Assembly: GCA_964436165.1 (NCBI GenBank)
Contig: CAYTBY010000003.1
Span: 1-62,533, forward strand
Source of the DNA: an uncultured Candidatus Saccharibacteria bacterium
GTDB taxonomy: Bacteria > Patescibacteriota > Minisyncoccia > 2-02-FULL-40-12 > GWA2-44-9
Direction: 5' to 3'
DNA: 62,533 bases
The notes under the pieces are model-generated. The model saw only the letters and a list, made by a program, of their open reading frames with translations. It ran no database searches and was not told the origin of the DNA. The position numbers and the translations under genes were made by a program. Below, in pieces: positions 12,447-62,404 of this stretch; positions within the stretch are counted from its first letter, which is position 1, and every line of letters starts with the position of its first letter.

Positions 12447-15400
12447 ATGAAGTTCGTACACCTCCACACACATTCTCACTACTCATTACTCGACGGACTA
12501 TCAAGAATAGATGAGTTGATTGCCAAAGCCAAAGAAATGGGCATGGAAGCGCTGGCAATCACCGATCATGGCGTCATGTATGGCGCCATTGAATTTTATA
12601 AGAAAGCGAAAAAGGCGGGAATCAAGCCGATAATCGGCTGTCTTCCTCCTGGCCATTTAATAATAACTAGAGACGGGATTAAATCCATTGAAAGTATAAA
12701 AGTTGGGGATATGGTATTGACCCACAAGGGTAGATTCAAGAAAGTTTCTCATATAATGTCACGGAGCCATAGCGGAAAAATTTACGGGATTAAAGCAGCT
12801 AATTCAAATACTGTATGGGTTACCGAAGAGCATCCTATATTAGTAACAAATTCCCATACTAAATTTACCGAGTGGCGAAGAGCCGATCAGCTCGATTGGG
12901 GTAGGAAAAATAAGCATGGGGGAGTTAAAAGTTGGAAATTATATGCATCATTCCCAAAACTAAAAGAAAATATCGAGGATACCTTATCGCCGCTTAATTA
13001 TCTTGATAAAAATTACTATGGGATTGTAAACGATAATATAAGGAAAATAAAAAAATATAATAAGTATGATTCCTTAATCAGCTCGCCAGTATTATCGTCA
13101 AATATCCAAGTTACTAATGACTTTGCCTATTTTCTTGGCCTTTTCATTGCGGAAGGAAGTTTTCAAAAAGATCCTAAAGGCAGACCGACGTCTTTAACTT
13201 TTACCTTTAATATAAAAGAAGACTATCTTGTATCTAAAGCTCGATATATTTTAGATCAGCTTTCGCCTAATAAAACTTCCATTGCCATTAGACCAAACAA
13301 AAATATTACGGAGATTCATCATTCAAACACCCTTCTGGCTAGATTTATGTATAACTTTGCCGGTCATGGAGCGGGTGGTAAAAGAATACCGCCATCCGCT
13401 TTTTATTGGTCTCTGGGACGTTTAGAAAGTTTGCTTTCTGGGATAGTAGCTGGTGACGGTAGAATCAATCGGGAAAATAATAATGCGGTAGTGCTCAGAG
13501 TAAAATCTCGCGATCTAGCGTGGGGAGTAAAGTTAGTTGCTGCAAAATTGGGATATCCATGCAAAGTATCAGAAAGGCAAGAAGGCAAAAAAACTATATA
13601 TCAAATATGCTGGTCGCCCAATGGTAAATATAAAAGAATACTAGAAGACGATAAATATTTATATTTGCCCATTAAAACCATAGAAACAAAATATTACAGT
13701 GGTCCCGTTTATAATTTTACAGTAGAAGAAGATAATTCTTATGTCTCTGATATCATATTGCATAATTGTGAATTATATATGGCAGAAAACTCAATGCACG
13801 ATAAAAGAGCCGGCATCGATGACAAACGTTATCACCTGATAGTTTTGGCTGAAAATGAGACCGGTTATAAAAATCTGATCAAACTTGTCAGTGCCGCCCA
13901 CCTCGAGGGCTTCTATTATAAGCCGAGGGTCGACAAAGAATTACTAAAAAAACATTCCAATGGCCTTATCGGCTTATCAGCCTGTCTTGGTGGAGAAATC
14001 TCAAGAGCAATTTCTTCAAATAATTTTGCTAAAGCCAAAAAAATTGCCCTGGACTATGAGGAAATATTCGGTAAGGGCAATTTTTTTATCGAACTCCAAC
14101 AACACCCCCATATCGAAGATCAAAACAAAGTCACCCCTCAACTTATAAAGCTAGCCAAAGAAACCGGTATTCCTCTGGTCGCCACTCAAGACTCGCATTA
14201 CCTTAATTCCGATGACGCCCACGCTCATGATGTTCTTCTGGCCGTTCAAACCGGCAATAAATTAGATGACAATGATCGTTTAACCATGAAAGATGACAAT
14301 TTCTCTCTTCTCCACGAATCTGAAATGTATGAAAAATTTAAATCATTAGGCGAGAATGTGGTTGAGGAGGCATTCGGTAATACAAATAAAATCGCCGAGA
14401 GGTGTAATCTAGAGATAGAGCTTGGCAAGACCAAATTGCCCTTTTTCCACTTACCGGAAAATTACAAAAATGCGGATGAATACTTAAAAAAGCTATCTCT
14501 CGACGGCCTATCGGCTCGTTACGGAGACGAGATTAGTAATAACATCCACGACCGTCTTGAATACGAATTGAAAGTAATAACCCAAACCGGTTTTGCTTCC
14601 TATTTCTTGATCGTCCAGGACTTCGTTAACTGGGCCAAACAAAACGGGATTATTGTCGGCCCCGGCCGCGGTTCAGCGGCTGGAAGTTTAGTCTCTTATC
14701 TCCTTGGTATTACTAACATTGATCCCCTCAAATATAATCTCCTTTTCGAAAGATTTCTTAATCCAGAGCGCGTTTCCATGCCTGATATAGATTTGGACTT
14801 CGATGATGCTCGAAGAAACGAAGTACTTAAATACGTCGCTGATAAATACGGCCACGACCATGTTGCCCAAGTAATTACCTTCGGTACGATGGCAGCCCGA
14901 GGAAGCATCCGCGATGCCGGAAGAGCGTTGGGTTATTCTTACGATTTCTGCGACAAAATAGCTAAAATGATACCCCTCAACCCAAATCAGGGCAAATCAA
15001 GCCTAAAGAAAGCCGTTGAGGTCGTCGATGAATTAAAACAGGCTTATGATACCAACCCAGATGTCAAAAAACTAATTGATTCGGCTTCCCGCCTTGAAGG
15101 TGTCGCCCGCCATTCCTCTACCCACGCCTGCGCGGTTGTAATAACCCCGGAGCCACTGACCGAGTATCTGCCTCTTCAGCGCGGTACGAACGAAGAAGAT
15201 ATTATCACTCAATACGATATGCATACTGTCGGAGATGATTTAGGTCTTTTAAAAATTGATTTCCTCGGACTAGCTAACCTGACTATCATTAATAACGCTC
15301 TTACGGAAATAAAAAGAAATCATGGGATAGATATAGACATAGACGCCTTACCCCTGGATGATAAAAAAACTTTTAAACTTCTCCGCGAGGCAAAGACCAC

Positions 15401-16793
15401 AGGTATTTTCCAGTTGGAATCAAATGGAATGAAAAGATATTTAAAAGAATTAAAACCTACCAGCATTGAAGACATTATCGTAATGATATCTTTGTACCGC
15501 CCGGGACCATTGGAAACCGGGATGGTTGAAGAATATATAGAACGGAAACACGGCCGAAAAAAAATCTCGTACCTTCATCCATTAATGGAACCGATTTTAA
15601 ATAATACATATGGCATTATAATTTACCAGGAACAGCTGATGCAGATCGCTAATACTTTGGCAAATTTTACTCTTCCCCAAGGATATACCCTGATAAAAGC
15701 CGTCGGAAAGAAGATAAAATCCCTGCTCGATGAACAAAGGGAGAAACTTATTGATGGAATGGTGGCGAATAACATAAATAAAGTAACCGCTGAAAAGGTC
15801 TGGGATTTCATTGAACCCTTCGCCCGTTATGGATTCAACCGATCCCATGCCGCCTGTTACGCTATGATCGGCTATCAGACCGCCTATCTTAAAGCCAACT
15901 ATCCCACTGAATTTATGGCCGCATTTATGAACAGCGAGACCGGCGACATTGAGAGAGTTGCCTTTCTAATTGAAGAATGTAAAGACATGGGCATTGAGGT
16001 CTTGCCTCCGTCAATAGACGAGAGTTATGAAAGATTTGCGGTTGTCCCCTCAAACGGCAAGCCAGCTATCCGATTCGGTTTAACCGCCGTTAAAAATGTC
16101 GGCGAGAATGTTGTCTCGGCTATCATAAAAGAACGCCGAGCATTGGGCTCTTTCAAAAATGCCGAGGACCTTGTTTCCAGAATTCAAAATAAGGACTTAA
16201 ATAAAAAATCCCTCGAAAGTTTGATAAAATGCGGGGCCATGGATACTTTCGGAGAAAGAAATACCTTGATTCACAATCTTGAAGCCCTTCTTTCTCACGC
16301 CCGCGATAAACAGAAACACTCATCAACCGGCCAAGTTAGTTTATTCGGAAATTCTGTCGAGACCGAATTGCCTCCTTTGCGACTAGCTACTGCCGAACCG
16401 GCAAAATCGTGGGAGAAATTGTTATGGGAAAAAGAACTCTTGGGATTATATGTTTCAGACCATCCTCTCAATAATTGCCAAGCTCAATTAAAACTTGAAA
16501 AGGTTGTACCTATTAAAAGCATTACCCTGACCACGCCCGGCTCAATAAAAATTGGCGGCATTGTAACTCGAGTTCAGAAAATAGTAACCAAGAACGGAAA
16601 ACCGATGTTATTCTCGCACATCGAAGACCTTACATCCAAGATAGAGCTGGTCGTTTTTCCAAACGTTTTAGAAAAAAACCCCGAAATATGGAAAGAAAAC
16701 AGTTTGGTTGTCGCCCGAGGCAAAGTTAATGACCGTGATGGGGTTTTGAAGTTACTCTGCGACGAAGTAAAGCCGTTAATGGCAAGTATTTAA
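12447..16793 (+). CDS. dnaE: DNA polymerase III alpha subunit (intein-containing)
   Basis: [29 protein letters not shown] and FNRSHA motifs, C-terminal OB fold. Confidence 0.98.
12639..13766 (+). mobile_element. DnaE intein with LAGLIDADG endonuclease (376 aa)
   Basis: KPIIG|CLPPG...IILHN|CELY; LAGLIDADG-like [10 protein letters not shown] and [10 protein letters not shown]; excision restores IIGCE. Confidence 0.95.
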
Positions 16794-23013: not shown

Positions 23014-23051
23014 CTAAATTTATCACGATTTTTATCAACAAAGAAGGTCTT

Positions 23052-23189
23052 GCCCAGTAATACAACAAGCATATAACTCCCAGCCGACCGTAATTACCCT
23101 CAATCAGAATTCTCAATATAAGCACTGGGGTTAGCTATTGATTTACGCAGAGTCGTTATGGGAGGCCGATGCTTGTTGATATACTGGGC
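23052..23189 (+). ncRNA. Candidate structured ncRNA, copy A (138-nt rod-like hairpin)
   Basis: Long imperfect stem; homologous to 61453-61592 with compensatory changes; strand inferred only from G-U pairs. Confidence 0.6.
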
Positions 23190-23261
23190 TTGTTGCCACT
23201 TCTGTGGTTGGTATAATAACTAAACCTCTTACCAGCTACTTAACAAAAAGAGGGGTAAAAT

Positions 23262-28418: not shown

Positions 28419-32165
<3,747 letters not shown>

Positions 32166-37008: not shown

Positions 37009-37056
37009 CCCCGTTAGAAGTAGGCCATCCGAAGATGGCCGTAACTTCTAACGGGG
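37009..37056. repeat. CCCCGTTAGAAG...CTTCTAACGGGG palindromic element
   Basis: Same termini as the smpB insertion; contains the stop codon of the 37048 ORF. Confidence 0.8.
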
Positions 37057-38061
37057 AGCTACTTCCCGCCAGCGAGGGATTGCTCTTTGAGGACCGACGG
37101 TTTTAATTATTTCGCAATAACCGCCGTTGGGCGTTGAGGCATCATCGGCGACTCTAAGCGTAACCAGGTAAGAGCCCAGGACCGGAAATGTAATGATCGG
37201 ATTTTGAGGCGTAGCCGGAGGAGTTGTCGTGTCAATCGTCGCGGCCGGACTAACAAGCCAAGTCCATTGCCGGCTAAAGCTACCTAGAGCAAAAAATGTT
37301 CTGTCGGTAAATTGAGTCGGCACACCGGCGGCAGGATTACAAGGATTCCAGGTAAAATCATTTCCCGCCGGCGGATTGCAAGGTGGCTGATCATTAGGCG
37401 AAGTAGCTTTTCTGGGATCTGGATATTGGTGAATGGGAGTTCTCCAGTTATCCACTGACACGGCTGGATTAGATCCATTGATGTATGTCCCCATTCTAGT
37501 CCAAGCCGACCAGATATTGCCGCTGTTTCGAACCCGAGCCCAAGCCGTATAAAATGTATTCCAGATCATTTGGCAGTTATTTTGAGGAATGTTGTCCGGA
37601 TTACTGACGCTTTCCACAGAACAGTTAGGAGTGGCGGCAAAAAACGGATTACCGCTAGGAATCGAGATGCCGGTAGTATAGGCTTGCTGCCACTCCGGAT
37701 CTACAATAGCAACATTGGGATCAGCGGCTAAATCGTCATCGATCAAAACTTCATAACCATTAGCGTTAGTAGCGGAGGGATCAGTATAAACAGCTTGGAC
37801 GGTGGCATGAACACCGGCTGTACAATAATTGGAGTTAGTTACAGTTACCGTCGTATTTGATGCTGACGGTGACGGTAGAGAATCAACGAATTTTACAATA
37901 TAGCCGACATTGCCTTGGCCGACAATCGGTCCAACCGCGGCTCCGGCCCTAAAAATGTCGAAATTAAAATTAAAGAGAAATAAGAGAATAATCGCCAACA
38001 AAAATGTCGTCGTTAATCTGGGTGACAGTATTCCATTGTTTCCATTGTTGTTGACTTGCAT
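37048..38061 (-). CDS. Secreted/surface protein with a PKD-like C-terminal domain
   Basis: N-terminal hydrophobic segment; Pro/Thr/Cys-rich; GSYLVTLRVAD. Confidence 0.7.
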   Translation of the reverse strand: MQVNNNGNNGILSPRLTTTFLLAIILLFLFNFNFDIFRAGAAVGPIVGQGNVGYIVKFVDSLPSPSASNTTVTVTNSNYCTAGVHATVQAVYTDPSATNANGYEVLIDDDLAADPNVAIVDPEWQQAYTTGISIPSGNPFFAATPNCSVESVSNPDNIPQNNCQMIWNTFYTAWARVRNSGNIWSAWTRMGTYINGSNPAVSVDNWRTPIHQYPDPRKATSPNDQPPCNPPAGNDFTWNPCNPAAGVPTQFTDRTFFALGSFSRQWTWLVSPAATIDTTTPPATPQNPIITFPVLGSYLVTLRVADDASTPNGGYCEIIKTVGPQRAIPRWREVAPR

Positions 38062-49769: not shown

Positions 49770-49874
49770 CACAATAATTAAATTAATTGATAATTTGGCT
49801 ATATTGATTTCGGGTGTTGAGACTTTGGGAAACAGGGCCTGAAATCAATAAGCTAAATTGAAATTAATTTAATT
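49770..49874 (+). repeat. ~100-bp hairpin-forming dispersed repeat, copy B
   Basis: Nearly identical to the reverse complement of 2342-2446. Confidence 0.9.
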
Positions 49875-49922: not shown

Positions 49923-52900
49923 TTATTTTCTCACACCAACCCAGATTTTACGCTGTGGCGCCAACTCGAATTCTTTTTCAACATCATACGTCTTCTTACC
50001 TTTTGGACCAGAGACGAGCTCCTTAAGCAATGCCTCCCTTTTGATTTCCTCTGTCCACTCATGGATTGCCCCCGACACTTCCCCATCATCGGAATGCCAT
50101 TGGCCAAATATTTTCTCATCCAGCTTATATTTAGCTTCTTTCCTCATATCCTGGATTTGGCGGATTAGTTCTCTGGCATAACCCTCACCGATAAGAGCCG
50201 GCGATAATTCTGTGTCCAGGATAACTTCTTCCTTCTGATCTTTGTTCAAAACAACTTCTTTAACGTTGAGTTCTTCCTTTACTAAATCGAGTAACTGGTA
50301 ACTGGTAACTGGTAACTGGTAACTGCGAAGGGTTAGCTTCGCCAACGGTTGACGAACTTTTAACTGCTTTTCTTTTCTTATTGCCAATCCCGCCGTAACA
50401 ATATTTCTTACTTCATCCATCTCCTCCTCTAATTTTTTATCAATCAATTTTTTATCTATCTTCGGCCAATCTTGTAAATGAACACTCTCCAGATATTTAG
50501 ACATATCGATATTTCGATGAAGTCTTAAATGAATATCCTCTGCCAAAAAAGGCGTAAACGGAGCAAGAATCTTAGCTAATTCTAAAAGCAAAAACCTCAA
50601 AAGACCGAGAGCTTCCTTTCTTTTTCTTGAACGCCTCAGCCACCAATTCGACAAATCCTCAATCACGAATTTTTCTATTGCCCGGGCCGCAGTTGTCGGG
50701 TCATATTTATCTAAACTTTGCGTTGCTTCATCAATAAGGCCGTTGAGTTTTGAGATAATCCATCTATCGAGAAGGCTTGTATTCTGTATCTTGTATTTTG
50801 TATCTTGTATTTTTGAGTTAGCGTCGGAGTAATAAAGTTCGTAAAAACGAACACAATTTTGAACAGTAAAAATAAAACCCTTTAGCCTTTCCTGGACGCC
50901 TTTCTGGCTTACAACCATCGATTCTCCAATAGTATTGGCGGTATAAAAATACCAGCGGGTGGCATCAACACCGGCAGTATCAAGCAGTTCATTCGGCCTT
51001 ACAACATTACCGATTGATTTGGACATCTTCTTTCCCTTTTCATCCAAAGTATGACCTAAAACCATCACATTCTTGTAGGGATTGCCCTTGCCCAATAAAG
51101 TTGAGATTGCTAAAAGAGTATAAAACCAACCCCGAGTCTGGTCTATCGCTTCAATTATAAAATCTGCTGGGAATTGTTCTTTGAACATCTTTTTACTGTC
51201 AAACGGCTTGCCCTGAACTGTGTCAAAAGGCCAGTGCCATTGAGCATACGGCATCGCCCCAGAATCAAACCAGACATCTATCAAATCCGGCACTTTTTTC
51301 ATTGAAGCTCCGCACTCGCTGCATTTCAAATAAACTGAATCAACAAACGGCCGGTGAAGATCAAGTTCGCCGTATTCGTTTCTGGGTACCAGCTTCCAAT
51401 CAAGCTTTTGAACCTGAGCAAGATCGGAATAGTGGCCACGACCATCTTCTATCTCTGCTAAAATTTCTTTTCCCGTTGCACCAAGAGAGATCTCGGCAAA
51501 AAGCCAGAGCGGGTCGCCATGACTGACAATAAGAATATTTTTACCGAAGTATTTAGACTCCATTTCGTTTACAAAATCGAACACTCTCAACCGGACATCG
51601 TTCCAGCTCTCGCCTATTTCGTGATGCTTGTCATCCATGGTCGCTTTTTTGTCTCTGAAAGGACAACTGCCATGAGGCTTCCCCTCGCATCCGCCATGAA
51701 CTATCTCTGTGAGCCGATCGTCTTTGTTAACTTTGACATGAGTAAGTTTTGCAACAGTTTCAGCAGTTTCCATCGTCCTGATAAGGGGCGAAGAATAGAT
51801 GAGGTCTATTTTATAGTTGTTCTGAATAAATTGAGCTGTTTTTTCCACCTGCTTACGACCCTCGGCAGTAAGGTGATATTTGTCAGCTTTGGAATCGGCG
51901 CTAATTATCATTTTTTTTCGCTCATCCCGAGTAGTATAACCGTGGCGAAGGGTAAAATAAGTGTTTCTTTTTACAATTGCAGCTGTAGCCTGTTTCTCCA
52001 TTTCAGCAATTGAACCGATGACTTTGTAATTATCGCACTTCTGACATTTCCATATCGGTAGCGGTGTCCCCCAATAACGTTCCCGTGAAAAAGCCCAGTC
52101 CTTTCCCTCTTTCAACCATTGACCGAATCGGCCTTCCTTAATATGTCCGGGAAACCAGTTAATCTTCTGGCTATTTTTCAGAAGTTCTTCTTTAACGCCA
52201 GACATTTTGATGAACCAGGAACTTTTAGCGTAGTACAATAATGGCGAATGACACCGCCAACAGAAAGGATAATCATGTTCGTAGCCCTCTTCTTTAAAAA
52301 GTAGTTTTTTATCTTTAAGATAGTCAATCATTTTTTGGGTTGTCTTTTCTTCCGTCGGCTTATCTTTGTGTTTAACGACTAGACCATCGAAATCTTTCCC
52401 GACTCCAACAAATTTACCCTGTTCGTCAACGGTATGAAACTTGGGCAGTCCGAGTTTGGTACCTAAATCATAATCATCTTCACCATACATGACCGCCGTA
52501 TGGACAACGCCCGTACCTTCTTCAGTTGAAACAAAATCGGCATCGTAGACTTTATATGATGTTCGTGATTTTAATTCTTTAATGTCGAAAGGGGGTTCAT
52601 ATTCAAGGCCGACAAAGTCACTGCCTTTGTATTTTGTATCTTGTATTTTGTATCCTGTATCGGATCCAAGAACCTTATTTACCAGATCTTCGGCTAATAT
52701 AAAATGTTCCCCCTCTTTTTCGGCAATTACATAGCTAATATCCTTCCCGACAGCCAGAGCGACATTCCCCGGAAGCGTCCAAGGTGTCGTTGTCCAAGCG
52801 AGAATACAGGAATTAGGAAGTAGTTTGTAGGATTTAGGGTTTTTAATTTTAAATTTCACAATAACTGACCTATCAGTTATTGTGCGGTATCCTTGCGCAA

Positions 52901-53489
52901 CTTCATGAGATGAAATCGACGTTCCGCATCTGGCGCAATAAGGCACGACTTTGTGAGCAAGATACAACAGCTTCTTGTTCCATATTTGCTGGATTATATA
53001 CCAGAGCGTCTCAATATAATTATTTTCATAAGTAATATAGGGATCTTTCATATCCAGCCAGAATCCCATTTTTCGAGTCATCTCCTCCCATTCGGCCTTA
53101 TATTTCCAGACGCTTTCCCTGGCTTTTTTATTAAATTTTTCGATGCCGTAATTTTCTATATCTTTTTTAGACTTAAAACCCAATTCTTTTTCTACCTCAA
53201 TTTCCACCGGCAAACCATGGGTGTCCCAGCCGGCTTTACGCAAAACAAAAAAGCCCTGCATTGTTTTGTATCGGCCATAAAGATCTTTATAGACCCTGGT
53301 TAAAAAGTGGCCGATGTGGGGCAAACCATTGGCTGTCGGCGGGCCCTCAAAAAACACAAAGCGTTTGCCTGCCCGCCGAAGTCTTGACGAAGGAGGGGCT
53401 TTTTTGCGGGCCTCCAGAGATTTATCAAAAATATGGTTTTTATGCCAAAACTCAAGAATTTTATGTTCTGTATCCTTAAAATCGTACAT
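49923..53489 (-). CDS. ileS: Isoleucyl-tRNA synthetase (type 2) with an inserted histidine-phosphatase domain
   Basis: FFEGPPTANG...HIGH, GWDTHGLP, FSRERYWG and KMSKS motifs; insert carries LRHG...SHG. Confidence 0.96.
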   Translation of the reverse strand: MYDFKDTEHKILEFWHKNHIFDKSLEARKKAPPSSRLRRAGKRFVFFEGPPTANGLPHIGHFLTRVYKDLYGRYKTMQGFFVLRKAGWDTHGLPVEIEVEKELGFKSKKDIENYGIEKFNKKARESVWKYKAEWEEMTRKMGFWLDMKDPYITYENNYIETLWYIIQQIWNKKLLYLAHKVVPYCARCGTSISSHEVAQGYRTITDRSVIVKFKIKNPKSYKLLPNSCILAWTTTPWTLPGNVALAVGKDISYVIAEKEGEHFILAEDLVNKVLGSDTGYKIQDTKYKGSDFVGLEYEPPFDIKELKSRTSYKVYDADFVSTEEGTGVVHTAVMYGEDDYDLGTKLGLPKFHTVDEQGKFVGVGKDFDGLVVKHKDKPTEEKTTQKMIDYLKDKKLLFKEEGYEHDYPFCWRCHSPLLYYAKSSWFIKMSGVKEELLKNSQKINWFPGHIKEGRFGQWLKEGKDWAFSRERYWGTPLPIWKCQKCDNYKVIGSIAEMEKQATAAIVKRNTYFTLRHGYTTRDERKKMIISADSKADKYHLTAEGRKQVEKTAQFIQNNYKIDLIYSSPLIRTMETAETVAKLTHVKVNKDDRLTEIVHGGCEGKPHGSCPFRDKKATMDDKHHEIGESWNDVRLRVFDFVNEMESKYFGKNILIVSHGDPLWLFAEISLGATGKEILAEIEDGRGHYSDLAQVQKLDWKLVPRNEYGELDLHRPFVDSVYLKCSECGASMKKVPDLIDVWFDSGAMPYAQWHWPFDTVQGKPFDSKKMFKEQFPADFIIEAIDQTRGWFYTLLAISTLLGKGNPYKNVMVLGHTLDEKGKKMSKSIGNVVRPNELLDTAGVDATRWYFYTANTIGESMVVSQKGVQERLKGFIFTVQNCVRFYELYYSDANSKIQDTKYKIQNTSLLDRWIISKLNGLIDEATQSLDKYDPTTAARAIEKFVIEDLSNWWLRRSRKRKEALGLLRFLLLELAKILAPFTPFLAEDIHLRLHRNIDMSKYLESVHLQDWPKIDKKLIDKKLEEEMDEVRNIVTAGLAIRKEKQLKVRQPLAKLTLRSYQLPVTSYQLLDLVKEELNVKEVVLNKDQKEEVILDTELSPALIGEGYARELIRQIQDMRKEAKYKLDEKIFGQWHSDDGEVSGAIHEWTEEIKREALLKELVSGPKGKKTYDVEKEFELAPQRKIWVGVRK
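50291..50325. repeat. (GTAACTG)x5 tandem array within ileS
   Basis: Five perfect heptamers; translate as SYQLPVTSYQL. Confidence 0.9.
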
Positions 53490-60044: not shown

Positions 60045-60304
60045 TGACTATCTACAAAACGCCTATTTTCTTAAAACGATTCGAGAAACTCCCAAAAGAA
60101 GTACAAACACTATACAAAAGACAGGAGCTGCTTTTCCAAGAAAGTTGGCTTCACCCTTTAATTCATACTAAAAAATTAGATGAACTGCCGGGAGCTTTTT
60201 CTTTTAGAATTACCCGAGGATACCGAGTTCTTTTTTATTTTAGAAAAGAAACTGCCATTTTTTTCGGTATTGGTCATAGAAAGGATATCTATAAAAATCT
60301 ATGA
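60044..60304 (+). CDS. RelE/ParE-superfamily toxin
   Basis: HTKKL...FSFRITRGYRVLF...IGHRKDIY. Confidence 0.8.
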   Translation: MTIYKTPIFLKRFEKLPKEVQTLYKRQELLFQESWLHPLIHTKKLDELPGAFSFRITRGYRVLFYFRKETAIFFGIGHRKDIYKNL

Positions 60305-60819
60305 CCGAATACGCGACCAATTCCAAGGCGGGGTTTGATTATGAAATCCTTGAAACGATTGAGGCGGGAATTGTTTTGGAAGGACATGAGGTTAAAGCAA
60401 TAAAGACCGGCAAAGCATCTATTAAGGGGGCTTATGTAAAAATACTTCACCCCGTTAGAAGTCTCGCTCACGCCAAGGGCGCGAGTCCGAAGGACCTCGG
60501 CGAGGCTACTTCGAACGGGGTAAACGAGGAGGTATTTCTTATCGGCGCTACTATCTCTCCCTACCAGCCGATAAATACCCCCAAAGATTATGATCCCCAG
60601 AGATCAAGAAAATTATTATTATCAAAAAGAGAGATATCAAATCTTACTGGCACAGCTCAGACACAAGGAACAACCCTTATTCCCCTCAAATTTTACAATA
60701 AAAAGAGCCGAATAAAACTTCTCGTCGGTATCGCCCGAGGCAAGAAGAAATATGACAAAAGAGAAACAATCAAGAAAAAAGATGTTGCCCGCTCTAAACA
60801 GAGAGGAGTAGAACAATAA
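60301..60819 (+). CDS. smpB: SsrA-binding protein with a 25-aa palindrome-derived insertion
   Basis: EAGIVLEGHEVKAIK, RSRKLLL and RGKKKYDKRE motifs. Confidence 0.96.
   Translation: MTEYATNSKAGFDYEILETIEAGIVLEGHEVKAIKTGKASIKGAYVKILHPVRSLAHAKGASPKDLGEATSNGVNEEVFLIGATISPYQPINTPKDYDPQRSRKLLLSKREISNLTGTAQTQGTTLIPLKFYNKKSRIKLLVGIARGKKKYDKRETIKKKDVARSKQRGVEQ
60448..60522. repeat. In-frame 75-bp palindromic element in smpB
   Basis: ACCCCGTTAGAAGT...ACTTCGAACGGGGT. Confidence 0.85.
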
Positions 60820-61341: not shown

Positions 61342-61452
61342 CTAATAACTAGGGAGTCAAGGAAACTATTGACACGACTTTTTTAGATTCAAAAAACCTG
61401 GTTAGCTTATGTATAAAGTCAAAAAACCCAGATAAAAGTGGTCATCCTATCA

Positions 61453-61592
61453 ACCCCGTAATACAGCAAGGATTTAACTCCCGGCTGACTATAGTTTAAA
61501 CGGAGTTATACCTCATAATGGAAACTTAATATTTAAAACAGCGTTTTAAGGATAGTCGTTATGGGGAGCCTATCCTTGCTGATATACGGGGT
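61453..61592 (+). ncRNA. Candidate structured ncRNA, copy B (140-nt rod-like hairpin)
   Basis: Homologous to 23052-23189 with compensatory stem changes. Confidence 0.6.
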
Positions 61593-61674
61593 CAATTTCA
61601 GGCAGAGCTAAGCTCAGCTTTGTGAAAACGGCTAGCGTTTAGTTATTAAAAATAAAAGGCCGACGTTAGTCGGC

Positions 61675-62191: not shown

Positions 62192-62404
62192 TTACCACGG
62201 GGCAAGCCCTTCGAATTCCTCAGGGCTATCACAGGCTTTTCCAGAAATAAAATTATTTGGGTCTAATCCTTTGGCTTTCAGATCCCCTACCCTTTCTTCT
62301 GATTGTTCCCACTCTGACCAATCATTATTATTCCCACCTTCAATCTGATGAGACGAAGTGGCGCTCCCCCATTTGAAACCATCCGGAAATTTATAACTTG
62401 GCAT
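62192..62404 (-). pseudogene. Truncated glycoside hydrolase family 1 (beta-glucosidase)
   Basis: FPDGFKWGSATSSHQIEG...ACD is a GH1 N-terminus, followed by repeat-derived sequence and a stop. Confidence 0.8.

Follow-up and report, generated by a model that had tools for sequence, protein, structure and literature searches.

The window analysed here, a 62.5-kb stretch of DNA from a groundwater metagenome, contains two similar segments, copy A and copy B, which in a preliminary description had been taken for two copies of a candidate non-coding RNA. Copy B raises the question of what kind of object such a segment is: the gene of a structured RNA that acts in trans, a leader belonging to a neighbouring gene, or a piece of DNA that moves. 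The preliminary description had left a trans-acting RNA and a mobile structured element side by side. We approached the question through the boundaries of the two copies, through related copies in other contigs and through the sites at which these copies lie.

Extent and setting of copy B

Copy B is 138 bp long and occupies positions 61454..61591 on the plus strand, which is by definition the strand that reads CCCCGTAATAC... Copy A is 136 bp long and occupies positions 23053..23188 on the plus strand. The element was indeed present where it had been placed before (61453-61592 for B and 23052-23189 for A), but those limits were too wide, in the case of B by one base on each side. That copy B is real and has the same architecture as copy A was confirmed: the two could be aligned with 78% identity, they share an imperfect hairpin, and both a conserved 5' block (GTAATACANCAAGNATNTAACTCCC) and a 3' block (AGTCGTTATGGGNNGCC) occur exactly twice in the 62.5-kb window, with approximately zero occurrences expected by chance in either case. 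Both copies belong to the long-form subfamily described below. From eight copies of the long form a covariance model was built; it matched copy B over its full length with 131.5 bits (E = 2.5e-27) and copy A with 135.6 bits, and no further copies of the family were detected with this model in the window or in approx. 120 kb of related loci.

The left terminus of copy B, CCCCGTAATACAGC (61454..61467, plus strand), is the 14-nt end common to all three subfamilies. The right terminus, GCTGATATACGGGG (61578..61591, plus strand), repeats the left one imperfectly in inverted orientation, and the asymmetry between the two ends, TAATA against ATATA, is kept in every copy. Directly outside the termini the letters TCAA are found on both sides, at 61450..61453 and again at 61592..61595, with no strand assigned to either. 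Copy A is bordered in the same manner by CTTG at 23049..23052 and 23189..23192, likewise without a strand. The direct repeats flanking copy B had not been among the observations of the preliminary description.

The site of copy B lies between the terminator of a lipoprotein gene and the region upstream of a 149-aa ORFan. The terminator-like hairpin, which has the features of an intrinsic terminator of the upstream 148-aa lipoprotein gene, is located at 61659..61674 on the minus strand, outside copy B, and would halt minus-strand read-through before B. The two flanking genes had been described as unknown and secreted, and this was upheld in so far as both are ORFans without a Pfam match; judged by eye, the N-terminus of one neighbour is signal-peptide-like (MTKIFSFFLAALLILSTSSFA) and that of the other lipobox-like (LSMAMMAGC). 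When homologues of the 149-aa ORFan were searched for, only the ORFan itself was returned, and an exact look-up was empty. In this accessory neighbourhood a 70-aa ORF (62192-62404, minus strand) has a match to glycosyl hydrolase family 1 that is confined to the first 27 positions, and it is probably a gene remnant.

By sequence inspection no convincing promoter was seen at the TCAA/TTGA site of copy B, and neither a promoter nor a terminator was found that brackets the element. In an Rfam search of the whole window only a tRNA scored above the gathering threshold. With permissive thresholds around A and B the best matches were at chance level (E of at least 0.3). A BLAST search of copy B against plasmid and phage records gave no match.

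A family with common ends

A strict scan of public collections with the 5' pattern yielded one copy, in a Saccharibacteria MAG (L001), and a looser scan with three anchors yielded six metagenome contigs (L002-L007), two of which, L005 and L007, hold the same copy. An end-to-end pattern scan of IMG/VR added one more copy (L008). Subsequently a search for termini within the fetched loci revealed a second, 80-bp element in L003, a solitary left end in L002 and, in L006, a nested element of 70 bp. Taken over the pattern scans, the family has two members in the window and is also represented in nine other contigs. The copies are scattered, several of the contigs are of Patescibacteria type, and the contexts are unrelated. 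As a search pattern the end pair of the family can be written CCCNGTAATACANC ... GNTGATATACNGGG.

All copies carry the 14-nt termini CCCNGTAATACAAC on the left and GTTGATATACNGGG on the right, which are imperfect inverted repeats of each other with an invariant central asymmetry (TAATA left, ATATA right). The copies are 70-138 bp long, have no conserved ORF and fall into three subfamilies. The long form (132-138 bp, arms of approx. 36 nt) comprises A, B, L001, L002, the first element of L003 (L003a), L004, L005 and the outer element of L006. The mini form (70-80 bp) comprises the second element of L003 (L003b) and the inner element of L006, and the third subfamily is represented by the 134-bp copy in L008 with its different interior. 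The three subfamilies differ in their interiors and have only the 14-nt ends in common, and since nothing else is common to all three, we regard the termini as the part that is required for movement.

Within the long form the left arm carries TAACTCCC and the right arm GTCGTTA. The centre is variable across the eight sequences, with the exception of a small conserved apical island (TTCTCAATAGA-like). The right end reads TGATATACT in half of the copies and resembles an extended -10 element pointing outward. We found nothing relevant in the literature on MITEs (miniature inverted-repeat transposable elements, which are non-coding and shorter than about 300-500 bp) in CPR or Saccharibacteria. There was also no match in Rfam or among plasmids and phages, and the family appears to be undescribed.

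Insertion as DNA

The preliminary description had proposed to compare the flanks of the copies for target-site signatures, and this comparison proved to be the informative one: it brought to light 4-bp duplications, a site that is unoccupied in relatives and one element nested in another. A perfect direct repeat of 4 bp was present at both flanks in 10 of the 11 complete copies, and the letters differ between copies: CTTG for copy A and L001, TCAA for copy B, TTGA for L003a, L003b and the outer element of L006, TAAA for L004 and L005, CAAA for the inner element of L006 and TATG for L008. The sole exception was L002, in which the flanks are imperfect (GCAA vs TAAA). By our own arithmetic a 4/4 match is expected by chance in about 0.4% of cases per copy at the present base composition, so that 10 of 11 cannot be chance. 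The target tetranucleotides (TTGA, TCAA, CTTG, TAAA, CAAA and TATG) are A/T-rich. As the flanking repeats are direct and not inverted, they do not prolong the stem.

An unoccupied target was found for copy A. The closest homologues of the ThyA encoded beside copy A were 85-86% identical to it, with 85% for those of L012 and L013. In these two contigs the spacer between the divergent gatB and thyA genes is 109 nt long, lacks copy A and contains one CTTG (...AAAGAAGTCTTGTTGCC... / ...TTTATCAACAAAGAAGTCTTGTTGCCCTCCCTGTGGCTGGTATAAT...), at the place where the window reads ...AAAGAAGGTCTTG (136-bp element) CTTGTTGCCACTTCTGTGGTTGGTATAAT... The window flanks of A joined by a single CTTG gave a colinear alignment with L012, and MAFFT opened a gap of matching size. 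We concluded that L012 and L013 show the target of copy A in a clean, unoccupied state. In another relative with a ThyA 86% identical (L010, 7137-7200) and also in L011, the thyA promoter targeted by copy A in the window contains a palindromic insert of another kind, approx. 63 nt long (CCAAGAAGCTGTCCGGAAAGTC...GACTTTTCGGATAGCTTCTTA), which separates its -35 from its -10.

A nested insertion was detected in L006 (1980-2188, minus strand). Here the host is a long-form element of 135 bp flanked by TTGA, and its right arm contains a mini-element of 70 bp (2003-2072) that has the family ends and a duplicated CAAA. When the inner 70-bp element and one CAAA were removed, the right arm of the host element was restored to GGCAAATGCTTG, as it stands in L001 and L005, so that L006 supplies a further natural comparison of an occupied with an unoccupied site.

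In run X1 of the source metagenome, other contigs match only the two ends of B; similarity ends at the element boundaries, and the assemblies break there. In the assembly graph of this run the branching point is exactly at 61592, the first letter of the right TCAA: a 32-nt unitig with a depth of 25.5 continues leftward both into an element-bearing path (14.6x) and into a 230-nt contig (11.4x). The 30 letters before 61592 in the 230-nt contig are ATTTCATCCTATCAAGCCAGCTCAGCTGGC, and its allele reads ...TCATCCTATCAA GCCAGCTCAGCTGGC TCAATTTCAGG..., that is, 12 nt of the left flank of B including TCAA (TCATCCTATCAA), a 15-nt palindrome (GCCAGCTCAGCTGGC), and then the right TCAA with its flank. This was the only other allele seen. 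It is without the 138-bp element, yet it cannot count as a clean unoccupied site of B. Of the 15 palindrome letters, nine (AGCTCAGCT) recur in the right flank; the palindrome may be the footprint of an excision, with templated filler, or a micro-insert of another kind. Further left, beyond the 12 shared nucleotides, the alternative allele departs from the window, and so does a nearly identical B copy found in run X4.

The positions of the copies relative to expression signals were read from the sequence. Four copies (A, L003a, L003b and the outer element of L006) lie in promoter -35 boxes or -35-like boxes and one (L008) lies on a start codon, and in all five the signal is restored by the duplication copy on the right. 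Copy A is located between the back-to-back divergent promoters of gatB and thyA. The thyA promoter consists of the -35 box TTGTTG (23190-23195), a 16-nt spacer and TGgTATAAT with the -10 at 23212-23217; -35, spacer and -10 are also present in the empty-site relatives L012 and L013. The CTTG target of copy A lies in this -35 box, and its right duplication copy at 23189..23192 overlaps and rebuilds the box. Owing to this rebuilding, a miniature transposon can occupy the -35 box of an essential-pathway promoter in a tiny genome without abolishing the box. On the other side of copy A the extended -10 of gatB, TGATAAATT, is followed by the start codon 6-7 nt later. In L003a, L003b and the outer element of L006, TTGA is followed by a spacer of 16-18 nt and a -10-like hexamer of the type TGnTA...T.

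The copy in the IMG/VR contig L008 (9906-10039) lies on a TATG that contains the secA start codon, and this TATG is duplicated. Just inside its right end in-frame stops (TAA TAG) are found, and the right end, TGATATACTGGG, resembles an outward extended -10, located 4 nt before the restored ATG. The copy shared by L005 (273-408) and L007 (270-405) is situated upstream of a 16S rRNA gene (AGAGTTTGATTCTGGCTCAG...), only a few bases from its 5' end, and, as judged from this position, would lie in, or directly before, the pre-rRNA leader.

Nature of the element and the enzyme that would move it

From these results we conclude that copy B is very probably a non-autonomous DNA transposon (MITE) of 138 bp, non-coding, with imperfect terminal inverted repeats, inserted at TCAA with a 4-bp duplication. 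A MITE is a known kind of element, and it replaces the candidate-RNA label for B. Of the two readings that had been left side by side, the mobile element is the one that the duplications, the empty site and the nesting support, and the non-coding RNA gene is the one that lost ground, there being neither promoter and terminator at B nor a match in Rfam.

The reading as an RNA gene has the strong fold of the element in its favour. It would hold that A and B are two paralogous copies of a stand-alone gene for a trans-acting structured RNA, a rod on the plus strand with internal loops that bind a protein or a target; such an RNA would be new, as the known RNA families give no match. Owing to its inverted arms of approx. 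36 nt, copy B folds as a long rod, with -53 kcal/mol on the plus strand (z = -6.1). The minus strand is equally strong (-57.1 kcal/mol, z = -6.4), which speaks against this reading. Differences between A and B are compensatory at three places (CCCAG/CTGGG vs CCCCG/CGGGG, AAC/GTT vs AGC/GCT, and GCAT/ATGC vs GGAT/ATCC). Over the long form 21 well-defined arm pairs are 98% paired, with three pairs altered on both sides, in seven cells. These concerted changes favour an RNA at first sight; what they suggest is a stage at which the two arms are paired, be it in fold-back DNA or in RNA, and taken alone they do not establish a function as RNA.

A preference for one strand had been derived earlier from a U-G pair in copy B. 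The pair (CTGAC/GTCG) is real, but the argument for the strand is weak: over the eight members G-U cells outnumber A-C cells on the plus strand by 14:5, which corresponds to 8 vs 4 distinct pair types and a binomial p of 0.06. We regard this G-U bias as a mere lean that is not significant.

The internal loops and the apical motif are conserved in the eight sequences, as would be expected of an RNA. The subfamilies, on the other hand, exchange the whole body of the supposed RNA and retain only the 14-nt termini. For TAACTCCC a pairing with GGGAG (CUCCC/GGGAG) was considered and rejected: the 3' partner is lost in three members, so that TAACTCCC is conserved as sequence and not as a helix, and this part of the rod is unsupported. 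A second candidate role for the same letters, as a -10 box, was rejected as well, because the key -10 position varies. The asymmetric loops (TAATA vs ATATA, and TAACTCCC on the left vs GTCGTTA on the right) would most simply be end-specific recognition sequences for the moving enzyme. As 4-bp duplications, an empty site and a nested copy show insertion as DNA, we consider an RNA gene improbable; transcription of a MITE may occur, but as a secondary property.

A hairpin repeat moved as single-stranded DNA by an HUH enzyme, either a palindrome-associated element derived from IS200/IS605 or a repeat of the REP/BIME type mobilised by a RAYT, would account for the long hairpin potential, for the arms that change in concert and for the slight wobble bias to one strand. 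IS200/IS605 elements insert beside a fixed tetra- or pentanucleotide without target duplication. In contrast, the 4-mers flanking the present copies vary and are duplicated, whereas the empty site has the 4-mer once, and no TnpA, TnpB or RAYT was detected in the large ORFs of the window. We judge movement by an HUH enzyme to be very improbable.

A cis-acting leader on the minus strand, a riboswitch or attenuator upstream of gatB (A) and of the 149-aa ORF (B), has in its favour the minus-strand fold of -57 kcal/mol and the distances (A approx. 40 nt upstream of gatB, B approx. 110-160 nt upstream of the ORFan start), but it is scarcely credible, as the downstream genes are unrelated (gatB, ORFan, 16S rRNA, secA, thyA and others), gatB of L012 and L013 lacks the element, the extended -10 of gatB stands between element and start codon so that A is upstream of that promoter, and neither a conserved core resembling a ligand pocket nor an Rfam match was found. 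Copy A lies outside the gatB and the thyA transcripts, upstream of both flanking promoters, which in itself argues against a leader or riboswitch. The earlier argument that unrelated contexts speak against a gene-specific riboswitch holds.

As a MITE, copy B would have inserted at a TCAA, these 4 bp becoming duplicated. Movement would occur in trans, through an enzyme whose gene lies elsewhere and which cuts with a stagger of 4 bp, and candidates for such an enzyme are an IS1380/piggyBac-like DDE transposase or a tiny GIY-YIG cassette. Pfam searches of the ten largest unannotated ORFs of the window detected no transposase, and in the approx. 120 kb of fetched loci neither an autonomous partner nor a transposase was found. 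A regular-expression search for the GIY-YIG motif in six frames of the window and of L001-L008 was negative. Scanning IMG/VR for the family ends at a distance of approx. 126-366 bp (elements of approx. 150-390 bp) returned one sequence, L014. It was rejected as a longer form of the family and attributed to chance, for it has no duplication and no ORF and lies in GC-rich, repetitive viral sequence.

In ISfinder, IS1380 elements have CC(C) termini and a duplication of 4-5 bp. The inverted ends of piggyBac start with CCC, its duplication is TTAA or more rarely TAAA, TCAA or TATG, and IS1380 forms the prokaryotic outgroup (PMC10813416). The present family resembles this group in termini that start with CCC, in the A/T-rich duplication of 4 bp and in asymmetric subterminal sequences, whereas its target is not TTAA and no transposase of any family was found linked to its ends. 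By this analogy we treat the resemblance to IS1380/piggyBac as a lead and not as membership.

The Correia or NEMIS elements, which are MITEs of Neisseria, are approx. 100-155 bp long, have 26-bp inverted ends and a TA duplication, and often lie beside promoters. Like them, the present elements are short and without genes, have inverted ends, a hairpin and a target duplication, exist in many scattered copies and in subfamilies of different size, and insert in or beside promoters without killing them. The differences are a variable 4-bp duplication instead of TA, unrelated ends (CCCNGTAATACAAC), hosts among the Patescibacteria and the lack of any sequence similarity. With the palindromic elements of Rickettsia (RPEs) and REP-like in-frame palindromes the family has in common that these are small palindromic mobile repeats in reduced genomes, and a related element of the window is in frame within smpB; it differs from them in the intergenic position of A and B and in their clear target duplications, and there is no sequence relation.

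One consequence is that a false candidate for a non-coding RNA is removed from the annotation. For other rod-like 'structured RNAs' of CPR bacteria with covarying stems, flanking 4-bp repeats should be checked first. Should the enzyme be identified, the family could show by what means mobile DNA maintains itself in genomes that have hardly any intergenic space to spare.

Two further elements in the window have CCCCGTTAGAAG ends. Their first six end bases, CCCCGT, are common with the family of A and B, and the ends diverge after position 6; the two families thus coexist in the window. A wider reading is possible but doubtful, namely that hairpin elements with CCCNGT ends, the present family together with the CCCCGTTAGAAG family, would be more than passive MITEs and would form a superfamily throughout the Patescibacteria that is aimed at the TTGA of -35 boxes and at start codons. 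Its duplication would rebuild the split signal, pairing of the arms as fold-back DNA or RNA would be required, and it would be moved by a piggyBac/IS1380-like transposase or by a minimal structure-specific nuclease. The outward -10-like right end (TGATATACT) and the palindrome allele at the site of B hint in this direction.

Besides copies A and B the window contains further repeats and insertions. A 71-nt hairpin element at 60450-60520, with the ends CCCCGTTAGAAGT / ACTTCGAACGGGG, lies in frame within smpB (60301-60819, plus strand). It adds approx. 24 residues (PVRSLAHAKGASPKDLGEATSNG), the Pfam match to SmpB is split into two stretches, and the flanks (TTCA / TAAA) do not form an intact duplication. 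A 48-nt element of the same CCCCGTTAGAAG family at 37009-37056 is situated at the 3' end of a 337-aa ORF on the minus strand (37048-38061). The TAG stop of this ORF falls within the end of the element, and the C-terminus may thus have been newly set by the insertion. Another family of hairpin repeats, at 2340-2446 and 49770-49874, has ends unrelated to those of A and B and similar flanks on both sides. GyrB (28419-32156, minus strand) contains an intein with a LAGLIDADG domain according to Pfam, DnaE (1448 aa; 12447-16793, plus strand) looks intein-interrupted by eye, and a class I tRNA synthetase (IleRS-like, 1188 aa; 49923-53489, minus strand) carries a His_Phos_1 histidine-phosphatase domain in its middle part (residues 514-672).
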